DNA of 28,437 nucleotides from a virus (Duplodnaviria; Heunggongvirae; Uroviricota; Caudoviricetes): positions 1 to 28,437 of the IMG/VR virus record IMGVR_UViG_3300026224_000011, one strand, 5' to 3'. The translations under genes and the position numbers were made by a program. The notes under the pieces are model-generated. The model had not been told where the DNA came from. It made no database searches and saw nothing but the letters and a program-made list of their open reading frames with translations. Shown in pieces: positions 8,314 to 10,741 of the stretch. Position 1 is the first letter of the stretch; each line of letters starts with the position of its first letter.

Positions 8314-9953
8314 TACCATCCTCCTGAACCAAAACGCCCGCCACGGTCACGCCCGGTGCTGCGTGGGGTGTGAATCTGAAATTTTGCGCTACGCGAAACC
8401 GCCAGCGTCCACAGCATGTGCAAACAGTCCGGGCCATCATCGTGGTCAGCTTTGGGGTAGTGGCGCAGCTGGTCAATCAGTGTCTGATGTGTGTGACTGA
8501 TACGAATCAGGCCGTTGGCCATATGCGGCTGAAGGGACTCAATGCGCAGCGCCTTATCCTCCAGCGGGATGACCGGCAGCGCCGGAACCGGCACGCCCAG
8601 CGCCGCCGAACGCTCAACCAGCACGGTACGCAGAAACTCCTGAAACTGGACGGACTCAAACGACCAGCACAGGCAGTGATATTCCCGCTGATACTTAATC
8701 ACGTCTTCGATAAGTTTATTCGGCAGACGTCGGCGGATATCGGCTTCAACCACATCCAGAATGCCGGTAAAGCGGTTAAAGCCCCCCACGAGAATGGCCG
8801 ACGGGTCACGGTTTTTATTCTTCTTCCCGAGACTGGGGTCAACAGCACCATAAAACACCCATTCATCAAGACGGTTAACCCAGAATTTAATGCAGCCCGC
8901 AAACAGCGCATCTTCACCGCTGACCGGGTCGTTCTGGTATTCAGAATCAAAGGTGTCGTGACCATCACGGACACGGATTTTCATCAGCGCCAGCAGGGGA
9001 CGCGCCGCCCATGACACCACCGACCCGGCGAGCATCTCAGCCTCGTTCTGTCGGTAAAGTGCCTCCGCCGCTTCCGGCTGTTTATTGCGGATGAGTTCTT
9101 CCCACTCGTCCCACAGCTTCATGTTGGCAGGCCACTGAATAACAGCCTTAAAGCGGGCTGTTTTCCACATCGGGTTATTGAGTGTGCGCGACAGCACGGA
9201 GTCGTAATGCAGGATGGTTCCGATATAAATAATATCGGTTTTACCGCCAGCCTCGCCCAGCGGCATCACGGTTTTGGTAAGCCAGTCATGCAGCTTGTCG
9301 CGCTGCTCCGGGTTACGCACCATCTCGTCGTTCTCGATGTCGTCGAGGATGACCAGGTCAGGACGGTACGGACCGTGGCGCAGACCACGCAGTTTTTTAC
9401 CACTACCGGCAACGGTCACCTTGATATTGTTGGCCGTGACGATGGTCCCCATACGCCAGACACGCCCCTGTCCGCACACTTCCGGGAAATCGTTTTTTAA
9501 ACGGGGGTTAAATTCCAGTTCAGCCTTGATGGCTTCCAGCATCGGATAAGCCTGGTCGATACTGTCCATAATGATGACCGGGTAATGCTTAATGGCCCGG
9601 ATAATGTTCCACAGGGTAAACAGCTGCGTCACCAGCGTGGATTTTGCTTCACCACGGGGGGCGGCGATGGCGTCGTTCTCCGGGTCCGGGCTTGCCACAA
9701 CCTGTGGCAGACGGCTGAACAGGTATTTATGCAGCTCACTTTTTGCCGGGTTGCGGACGTAATGCGGGAAATAGTTTTCGACAAAATAATCGTAGCCCGT
9801 CACCGGGTCACAGACTGCCGCCCGGCGGGCCTGTGTGGCCTGCGGGTTAACATCGAACCCCAGACATTCAGCCTCGATGGTCTGGCGGAGGTTGGCGATG
9901 TACTCCTGCAGGCTTCTCTGAAACTCTTTAATGGAAAGTTTACGTTTTGCCAC
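8313..9953 (-). CDS. terminase large subunit (Mu gp28/E-like)
   Basis: Terminase-like ORF; start placed at GTG 9951-9953 with AGGTG RBS, just after the MTase stop; the ORF track extends to TTG at 10010. Confidence 0.7.
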   Translation of the reverse strand: MAKRKLSIKEFQRSLQEYIANLRQTIEAECLGFDVNPQATQARRAAVCDPVTGYDYFVENYFPHYVRNPAKSELHKYLFSRLPQVVASPDPENDAIAAPRGEAKSTLVTQLFTLWNIIRAIKHYPVIIMDSIDQAYPMLEAIKAELEFNPRLKNDFPEVCGQGRVWRMGTIVTANNIKVTVAGSGKKLRGLRHGPYRPDLVILDDIENDEMVRNPEQRDKLHDWLTKTVMPLGEAGGKTDIIYIGTILHYDSVLSRTLNNPMWKTARFKAVIQWPANMKLWDEWEELIRNKQPEAAEALYRQNEAEMLAGSVVSWAARPLLALMKIRVRDGHDTFDSEYQNDPVSGEDALFAGCIKFWVNRLDEWVFYGAVDPSLGKKNKNRDPSAILVGGFNRFTGILDVVEADIRRRLPNKLIEDVIKYQREYHCLCWSFESVQFQEFLRTVLVERSAALGVPVPALPVIPLEDKALRIESLQPHMANGLIRISHTHQTLIDQLRHYPKADHDDGPDCLHMLWTLAVSRSAKFQIHTPRSTGRDRGGRFGSGGW

Positions 9954-9954
9954 G

Positions 9955-10695
9955 TCACACCTGCGCTGCTTCTGCCTGCGCTTTTTCGAGACGTGCGCAG
10001 GCGATATCAAAATACTGGTTAGTCATTTCAATGCCGGTAAACCGTCCGCCACGGGCAAGTACAGGGATGGCGGTGGTGCCGCTTCCCATAAACGGATCGA
10101 GAACGTGCGCATCCGGTGCCAGCGGTTTAACCAGCTCGGCCATCAGCTGAACCGGCTTTGCGGTCATGTGAAGTTTTTCGGACGGGACAACACGCTGCGT
10201 AATCACACCCGGGAACGGGCCACCGTGCGGGCATTTGTCGAGTTTTCCGTTACTGCCCCAGACCACATACTCGGCCTGATGCCGGAAATAGCCGGTGTGT
10301 GGCGCACGGGAAGCAAGCGTTTTATCCCAGACAACCAGACCGCGCCACAGCACACCACCGGCCTGAAATGCATCGGTAAGCGCCGGTAGTTGTCGCCAGT
10401 CACTGAACACCATGAAATAACCGCCGGGATTCAGCCTGTGCAATGCATGAGAAATCCACATGGAACACCAGAACGCCCAGCTGCGCTGGTCGCGGTTATC
10501 GCCGGTGAACTCGGCATACTGAGTGTGACCGACATACTTGTCCGAAGGGGCCATGCTGCGGTCTGATTTGTGTGTGCCACCACTGCTGTAAGGCGGGTCG
10601 GTAATGACGGCATCAAAACGTTCAGATAACGCTGGCAGCACATCAAGAACATCACCGCAATACAACGTTGCGTTACCAATAATCTGTTTTTGCAT
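9955..10695 (-). CDS. DNA methyltransferase, beta-class (probable N6-adenine; N4-cytosine not excluded)
   Basis: 246 aa; DPPY catalytic motif near the N-terminus and DPFMGSGTT AdoMet motif near the C-terminus; no nuclease partner adjacent. Confidence 0.8.
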   Translation of the reverse strand: MQKQIIGNATLYCGDVLDVLPALSERFDAVITDPPYSSGGTHKSDRSMAPSDKYVGHTQYAEFTGDNRDQRSWAFWCSMWISHALHRLNPGGYFMVFSDWRQLPALTDAFQAGGVLWRGLVVWDKTLASRAPHTGYFRHQAEYVVWGSNGKLDKCPHGGPFPGVITQRVVPSEKLHMTAKPVQLMAELVKPLAPDAHVLDPFMGSGTTAIPVLARGGRFTGIEMTNQYFDIACARLEKAQAEAAQV

Positions 10696-10716
10696 TACAA
10701 ATCCCGAATATCAGAC

Positions 10717-10734
10717 GGCCCGGAAAACCGGGCC
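10717..10734. other. GC-rich hairpin between small terminase stop and MTase start
   Basis: ggcccgg aaaa ccgggcc: 7-bp perfect stem, 4-nt loop, no flanking T-run. Confidence 0.4.
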
Positions 10735-10741
10735 GCTGTGG

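Follow-up and report, generated by a model that had tools for sequence, protein, structure and literature searches.

What is a DNA methyltransferase (MTase) gene doing between the two terminase genes of a Mu-like phage? The question is raised by the IMG/VR virus record IMGVR_UViG_3300026224_000011, of which positions 1 to 28,437 were analyzed here (28,437 nucleotides, the window). The window contains the left two-thirds of a Mu-like transposable prophage, encoded on the minus strand. A preliminary description, made from the sequence alone, had read the gene as a self-contained moron, plausibly serving self-methylation against host restriction. Our results lead us to a different account, which we hold to be fairly probable: an orphan beta-class, likely N6-adenine, MTase, encoded by an old and dispensable accessory gene, made late in infection and acting against restriction.

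The methyltransferase and its gene boundaries

The locus contains the following features (all on the minus strand).

8313-9953: large terminase gene (terL), GTG start (PHROG 38, 2.8e-143; TIGR01630)
9951-9962: terL ribosome-binding region and GTG, AGGTGTGAcGTG, common to relatives with an empty slot
9955-10695: MTase coding sequence, ATG start, 741-nt open reading frame (ORF), 246 aa
9963-10706: variable segment of 744 nt, against 8 nt (TGTATACC) in empty-slot Escherichia coli (net 736), from alignment
10702-10705: GGGA, a weak putative Shine-Dalgarno-like site read from the sequence, 6 nt upstream of the MTase ATG
10712-10738 (core 10717-10734): GC-rich hairpin directly after the terS stop, a backbone element
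10742-11242: DUF1804 DNA-binding protein, putative small terminase (terS) (Pfam PF08822, 2.8e-52; PHROG 756)

The 246-aa product matched Pfam PF01555 (N6_N4_Mtase; E 7.6e-24, 85.3 bits against a cut-off of 26.7), PHROG 67 "DNA methyltransferase" (8e-54) and, over its full length, the PADLOC profile MTase_II (PDLC03321, 6.8e-64). The same gene is labeled "DNA-methyltransferase" by PGAP in dozens of RefSeq genomes. DPPY occupies residues 33-36 and DPFMGSGTT residues 200-208 (FMGSG, 202-206); motif IV thus lies N-terminal to motif I, which is the beta-class order, and the class proposed in the preliminary description was confirmed.

An AlphaFold2 model was built on 58 sequences, the window protein and 57 homologues (pLDDT 85, pTM 0.84). 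The N6-adenine enzymes M1.HpyAVI, CcrM, and M.BceJIV were its top Foldseek matches, with about 22% identity; the probability was 1.00 for these three and for MboIIA and RsrI. M1.HpyAVI (5hfj), CcrM (6pbd), and M.BceJIV (8urk, recognition sequence GTWWAC) have the same fold and motif order as the window enzyme (Foldseek E ~1e-15, TM 0.65-0.8; phmmer E ~1e-14), at 20-24% identity. The DNA-recognition loops (residues ~37-68 and ~125-165) have low pLDDT and do not align confidently to the solved enzymes, so that specificity cannot be transferred from them. The enzyme is most likely N6-adenine specific, as predicted from these matches. The literature on Mu-like prophage methylomes, on BPP-1 Bpm, and on DUF1804 or transposable-phage methylases gave no target motif for this MTase family. 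M.EcoGIX was considered as a relative and rejected; it is a plasmid-borne, single-strand-specific enzyme.

The late operon runs in the order holins, endolysin, DUF1804/terS, MTase, terL, and portal; from holin to portal all genes are on the same strand and either overlap or are spaced by a few nucleotides. Of the two terminase flanks named earlier, the large one stands by PHROG 38 and TIGR01630. The role of small terminase for the DUF1804 protein is putative and is taken from its position only; PHROGs labels the family as a DNA-binding protein, and phage Mu gp27 had no match in a tblastn search of the phage collection at E ≤ 1e-5.

The terS stop codon (TAA, 10744-10742) and the MTase ATG at 10695 are separated by a gap of 46 nt. 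The GGGA in front of the ATG is replaced in orthologues by GGGGGAA or GGGGG at the equivalent position. At the other end, the MTase stop (TGA, 9957-9955) is followed by C9954 and then by the terL GTG (9953-9951), that is, by the 1-nt spacing previously described; PGAP gives relatives an identical terL start and spacing. The sequence at 9951-9962 also provides the last Val codon and the TGA of the MTase. The MTase gene therefore ends inside the terL initiation region, an arrangement that would permit translational coupling.

The hairpin reported earlier at 10717-10734, between the terS stop and the MTase start, proved to be exactly placed. Its core is GGCCCGG-TTTT(C)-CCGGGCC (10734-10717), it extends to 10738-10712 with one bulge, and the 81-nt RNA folds at -27.4 kcal/mol (z = -3.5). 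The hairpin also occurs in the empty-slot E. coli alleles, and GGCCCGG-N4-5-CCGGGCC is found in Citrobacter, Intestinirhabdus, Buttiauxella, and empty-slot Trabulsiella. The idea that it forms part of the insert was rejected, given its presence in empty-slot relatives and four other genera. A hairpin after DUF1804 is thus kept in five genera with or without the MTase (L006 ~3960-3985, L017 ~5503-5526, L018, L019). A T-rich stretch follows it in the other genera; in the window the element at 10712-10738 lacks a T run and was not called as an intrinsic terminator. Between terS and the downstream genes it may act as a leaky terminator or contribute to RNA stability. The stem sequence is conserved and hence gives no covariation evidence.

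Presence, absence, and age of the gene

The terS/terL backbone was present, at 95-99% identity, in 55 of 5,426 complete E. coli genomes. Thirty-six of the 55 encode the MTase (an IS66 element has taken the place of terS in one of them); in the other 19 the slot is empty and the region exactly 736 nt shorter. The earlier statement that Mu has no gene at this place was correct, the spacing between gp27 and gp28 being 7 nt. The terminase genes are thus contiguous in Mu and in 19 of the 55 E. coli relatives, and the MTase gene is not universal among related Mu-like phages.

The junctions were obtained from an alignment of three empty and two occupied alleles. In the empty allele, the TAA and the hairpin are followed by GTCTGATATT, then by TGTATACC, and then by AGGTGTGACGTG (terL). 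In the occupied allele, GTCTGATATT is followed by CGGGATTTGTA-ATG, the MTase gene ending in GCAGCGC, and then AGGTGTGAcGTG. Hairpin, terL ribosome-binding site, and terL start codon are therefore all parts of the backbone. The start regions of the MTase and terL genes are alike (..GTAATGCAAAAAC and ..GACGTGGCAAAAC), and both deletion and insertion by short homology are possible.

In the three aligned empty-slot prophages, terS and terL are 98.7-100% identical at the amino acid level. One empty-slot prophage, E423, has a full annotated phage gene set and no other modification gene. The MTase is therefore dispensable, since 19 of the 55 backbone prophages, including the complete E423, do without it. 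The 36 and 19 complete E. coli genomes form near-isogenic natural pairs in which the fitness effect of phage self-methylation would be directly testable. No match to the locus appeared when 50,697 phage records were searched by megablast, and the backbone is thus known only as a prophage.

Orthologues in the same arrangement (DUF1804, MTase, terL, portal) were found in Citrobacter braakii, Serratia, Limnobaculum, Intestinirhabdus, and Buttiauxella at 68-80% identity. Identities to the window proteins in these five genera were as follows.

MTase: 80, 77, 68, 78, and 79%
terS: 61-78%
terL: 77-90%
portal: 66-75%

Across genera, the divergence of the MTase parallels that of terS, terL, and portal. 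The dN/dS values between the window MTase and its orthologues in the five other genera were 0.07-0.12, which indicates that the gene is kept under selection. In a neighbor-joining tree of terL, computed with no support values, the occupied state spans the clade; some empty E. coli and Trabulsiella loci are nested among occupied ones, and the contiguous terS-terL loci of Xenorhabdus and Photorhabdus are nested in the occupied clade or sister to it. Parsimony thus favors loss over gain. In Serratia, TGTATACC, the 8-nt filler seen in the empty E. coli allele, lies upstream of the MTase gene. The GC content is 0.557 for the MTase gene, 0.558 for terL, and 0.603 for terS, and the composition profile has no dip. 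On these sequence comparisons, the MTase gene is probably an old resident, a long-standing yet dispensable accessory gene of one Enterobacterales Mu-like lineage.

The E. coli MTase alleles are of two types. A comparison of window 9955-10695 with loci L005, L077, and L078 placed 38 of 53 nucleotide differences in codons 61-120 (WAFWCSMWISHALHRLNPGG in one type, WAYWSTLWMSGAARLVRPGG in the other), a patch of apparent recombination within core helices, possibly at a subunit interface. We rejected a swap of target recognition, because in the model the patch falls on residues 70-112, which form core helices and a strand, and because the expected DNA-reading loops and the block WDKT..SRAPHTGYFRHQ are near-invariant family-wide.

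Timing and function of the methyltransferase

A consensus scan near 9950-10745 for sigma-70-like promoters and terminator-like sites revealed none for the MTase gene. The label of a self-contained moron had to be abandoned: no promoter or terminator of its own was flagged, its GC content of 55.7% is that of its neighbors, and the hairpin and the MTase stop lie in the backbone. Morons were reportedly defined in lambdoid phages by Juhala and Hendrix. The MTase gene resembles them as an extra gene between two genes that are adjacent in relatives, and differs in lacking a promoter, a terminator, and an atypical composition of its own and in apparently not being expressed in the lysogen.

Enteropathogenic E. 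coli (EPEC) E2348/69, a widely used reference strain, carries a 93% identical MTase allele in the same slot. The complete related prophage of this strain has no annotated restriction enzyme, mom/com, or second methylase. The absence of an adjacent restriction nuclease noted earlier was borne out in the window, where the neighbors are DUF1804 and terL; with no nuclease annotated in the E2348/69 prophage either, we rejected the MTase as half of a restriction-modification pair. The PacBio and Oxford Nanopore (ONT) methylome of E2348/69 contained only GATC, two bipartite type I motifs, and CCWGG; REBASE lists ten MTase genes for the strain, yet only three motifs (Tvedte et al., 2021, PMC8495745). 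No motif in this lysogen is attributable to the MTase (PMC8495745), and the strain-specific methylated motif anticipated in the preliminary description was thus not found there. The simplest reading appears to be that the enzyme is not made in uninduced cells. The lack of an extra motif argues against expression from the prophage, not against methylation during lytic growth, and fits late-only expression.

We propose that the enzyme would be produced solely when the late operon fires. It would then methylate replicating phage copies, together with host DNA, just before headful packaging, so that progeny DNA, on reaching the next host, would resist those restriction enzymes that act at sites overlapping the methylated motif. 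Self-methylation against host restriction remains the best functional guess, and late self-methylation for restriction escape is the function that we favor, with some caution. Phage-borne orphan methylases are a well-known means of restriction evasion (they are said to have been reviewed by Murphy et al. in 2013, Appl Environ Microbiol), and the enzyme is in this respect a fairly ordinary finding.

The proposed role and timing are like those of Mu com-mom, namely late self-modification against restriction. Mom is not an S-adenosylmethionine-dependent methyltransferase; it places a carbamoylmethyl adduct on adenine, is encoded at the Mu right end, and is under the control of Com, a translational activator that confines mom to late infection. 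Mom has no homology with the window MTase, and the window lineage is without com and mom. The MTase may thus fill the job that Mom has in Mu, with late control served here by the position in the late operon and by the abutment of its stop with the terL start. Here, then, a modification gene would owe its timing to its place in the operon and not to a Com regulator.

The MTase family is large, with 670 phage records by tblastn and more than 7,500 proteins by protein search. Homologues of 50-62% identity lie within or beside the late or structural modules of other phages: in a Salmonella Mu-like prophage between the holin and lysozyme genes, in an E. coli lambdoid prophage immediately before HNH-terS-terL, and in IMG/VR Mu-like contigs between terL and portal or after portal (L111 1442-3729; L119-L121). 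The family has taken up several junctions of the packaging module. Other homologues lie within P2-like structural regions, some of them beside the tail sheath or integrase.

Escherichia phage Chuche and a Delftia P2-like prophage encode full-length members of the family (54-61% identity) that share with the window MTase the invariant blocks DWRQLP, WDK..SR.PH.GYFRHQ.EY, and H.T.KP. In both, a Com-type zinc ribbon (PF10122, E 4.6e-19 and 1.1e-11) precedes the homologue, and Com is upstream of the homologue in ~28 of the 80 IMG/VR loci examined. The Com pairing and the late-module positions indicate that the family has repeatedly come under late control. The P2-like Com-paired methylases are likewise orphans in late or structural regions, with anti-restriction as their presumed function. 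The window MTase differs from them in having no Com (the upstream gap is 46 nt), in lying between DUF1804 and terL, and in belonging to a transposable phage; no Com is annotated in the complete E2348/69 prophage. Phage KS5 gp20 and gp21 were annotated as an N-4/N-6 methylase and Com pair (Lynch et al., 2010, PMC3091744); KS5 gp20 is included here solely on this annotation and its Com partner. Bpm of Bordetella phage BPP-1, annotated as an adenine DNA methyltransferase, is 53% identical over 94% and is also a phage orphan, although in a podovirus genome and another context.

Several observations weigh against the account of an old, late, anti-restriction adenine MTase. The promoter scan was limited to sigma-70 consensus sites. 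The E2348/69 methylome would also be silent if GATC hid the target, or if the enzyme were inactive or only weakly active. With 19 of the 55 E. coli relatives lacking the gene, any benefit must be conditional. Beta-class N4-cytosine enzymes have the same fold; PF01555 spans both activities, and the N4-cytosine enzymes 8s9m and PvuII (1boo) are among the fold matches. N4-cytosine enzymes, however, typically carry SPP[YF], whereas the catalytic DPPY is invariant in the 58 aligned sequences, and N6-adenine enzymes gave the best matches in both sequence and fold, so that we think an N4-cytosine target improbable. A recent horizontal insertion into this phage, in place of an old resident sometimes lost, would suit the clean indel (744 nt against the 8-nt filler), the mobility of the family across phage types, and the fact that in E. 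coli the MTase has diverged more than the other three genes (93%, against 99-100%), owing to the mosaic patch. It is harder to reconcile with a slot filled in five other genera and MTase identities that track those of terS, terL, and portal, with empty states nested among occupied ones on the unsupported terL tree, with the occurrence of TGTATACC upstream of the Serratia MTase, and with a composition that is not foreign. We regard a recent arrival as unlikely, though less so than a cytosine target.

Two other functions would place the enzyme outside restriction escape. It could be a classical lysogenic-conversion moron, expressed in the prophage state and methylating the host chromosome so as to alter host gene expression or protect the lysogen. 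Absence from close relatives with otherwise contiguous flanks agrees with this, and the orphan methylases M.BceJIV and CcrM do act as regulators. But neither a promoter or terminator of its own nor a compositional anomaly was found, the 46-nt upstream gap contains only the backbone hairpin, and the E2348/69 lysogen shows no extra motif; we give this explanation little weight. A packaging role, in which methylation marks DNA for the terminase or regulates late genes, as P1 Dmt methylation of pac does, would account for the recurrent position in packaging modules. It would also agree with the embedding between terS and terL, with a stop/start arrangement compatible with coupling, and with homologues at terL/portal, after portal, or just upstream of terS-terL elsewhere. 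Yet the gene is absent from 19 of the 55 E. coli prophages with near-identical terS and terL, one of them with a full annotated gene set; in most DUF1804 phages the slot is empty or contains different cargo; and homologues also occur far from packaging genes (tail sheath, integrase, P2-like regions). An essential packaging role was rejected on the gene set of empty-slot E423, and any packaging role seems to us the least probable of these explanations.

The terS-terL junction and the surrounding prophage

We surveyed 53 species-level loci encoding both DUF1804 and terL. The gap between the two genes was at most 70 nt in 16 loci, 100-400 nt in 20, and more than 400 nt in 17. A window-type MTase occupied the slot in two loci. 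A Neisseria flavescens prophage had a C5-cytosine methylase of an unrelated class (PF00145, 1.6e-54; L049 5455-6322), apparently split in two overlapping frames by a possible frameshift or as a pseudogene. The presence of two unrelated methylase classes in one slot supports selection for co-expression with the packaging genes. Other cargo included a weak HicB-like match (24.1 bits; the Pfam cut-off is 27), three small ORFs in a Klebsiella phage, and proteins of 160-200 aa, encoded on the reverse strand and forming at least two families, in Aquitalea, Crenobacter, Neisseria, Eikenella, and Pseudomonas prophages.

Reverse-strand slot proteins: L022 5498-6109, L026 3031-3594, L031 6044-6538, L073 3736-4206
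Reverse-strand slot proteins: L033 5498-5989, L042 5708-6196, L054 5796-6296, L058 5498-6046
Reverse-strand slot protein, D3112 orf25: L080 3003-3539
Small forward-strand ORFs: L086 2525-2734, L108 3776-3997, L030 5449-5694, L036 5449-5838
Forward-strand ORFs of ~67 aa beginning MADKLIR: L021, L023, L027, L029, L032, L108

The reverse-strand representatives L022, L028, L033, and L042 had no Pfam or PADLOC match, and D3112 orf25 had no Pfam match (a PADLOC scan was not made for it); the remaining reverse-strand loci were grouped by sequence resemblance only. One of the families has a coiled-coil-like region and two CxxC pairs. These proteins are possible defense or anti-defense cargo. The small forward-strand ORFs between DUF1804 and terL form two families, with the motif ..MWLAMQ..CGP..AA.. 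or the MADKLIR start, and may be unrecognized components of the packaging module, not cargo. The DUF1804-type terS-terL junction is thus a variable cargo site, and its uncharacterized families may be worth screening for defense and anti-defense functions.

A broader and more speculative possibility, which we rate below the account given above, is that packaging-module junctions, above all DUF1804/terS-terL, are a dedicated cargo slot that swaps unrelated modification genes and candidate defense or counter-defense genes. The MTase would then replace the missing mom, its timing would come from late-operon transcription and terL coupling instead of Com, and its specificity might be short or relaxed and too harmful in the lysogen.

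The remaining genes identified in the window are the following (all on the minus strand).

6718-8319: Mu-type portal
late operon: two holins and an M15 endolysin
13229-13696: GemA and Mor
19381-20274: MuB-like ATPase
20293-22335: MuA-type transposase
22740-23390: CI-type repressor

The lysis cassette is mosaic among prophages that are otherwise 96-98% identical: the endolysin at 11665-12093 of the window is an M15 peptidase, and E2348/69 and others have a GH108 enzyme in that position (L005 4149-4694). A strong 13-bp palindromic hairpin at 12867-12895 (CTGCTGGGGGTG..CACCCCCAGCAG), between the ORF at 12914-13201 and the first holin gene, is probably the boundary of the middle and late transcription units. 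The sole clear GC trough in the region (13700-14150, 0.39-0.41 against ~0.55 around it) coincides with an ORF at 13796-14134 (minus strand, 112 aa, PHROG 5882) that has a signal-peptide-like N-terminus and lies between GemA and Mor. This ORF is a better moron candidate than the MTase gene.

A citrate-synthase-family ORF at 23690-24724 (minus strand) adjoins the repressor end and stops at profile position 327 of 357, and a gene of the phosphoenolpyruvate mutase/isocitrate lyase (PEP-mutase/ICL) family comes after this truncated ORF. The arrangement suggests a prpC gene interrupted by the prophage, with prpB as its neighbor. The prophage end lies between 23390 and 23690. Among relatives, the E2348/69 prophage lies in eutC and that of E423 in alx, in line with the random transposition of Mu-type phages.

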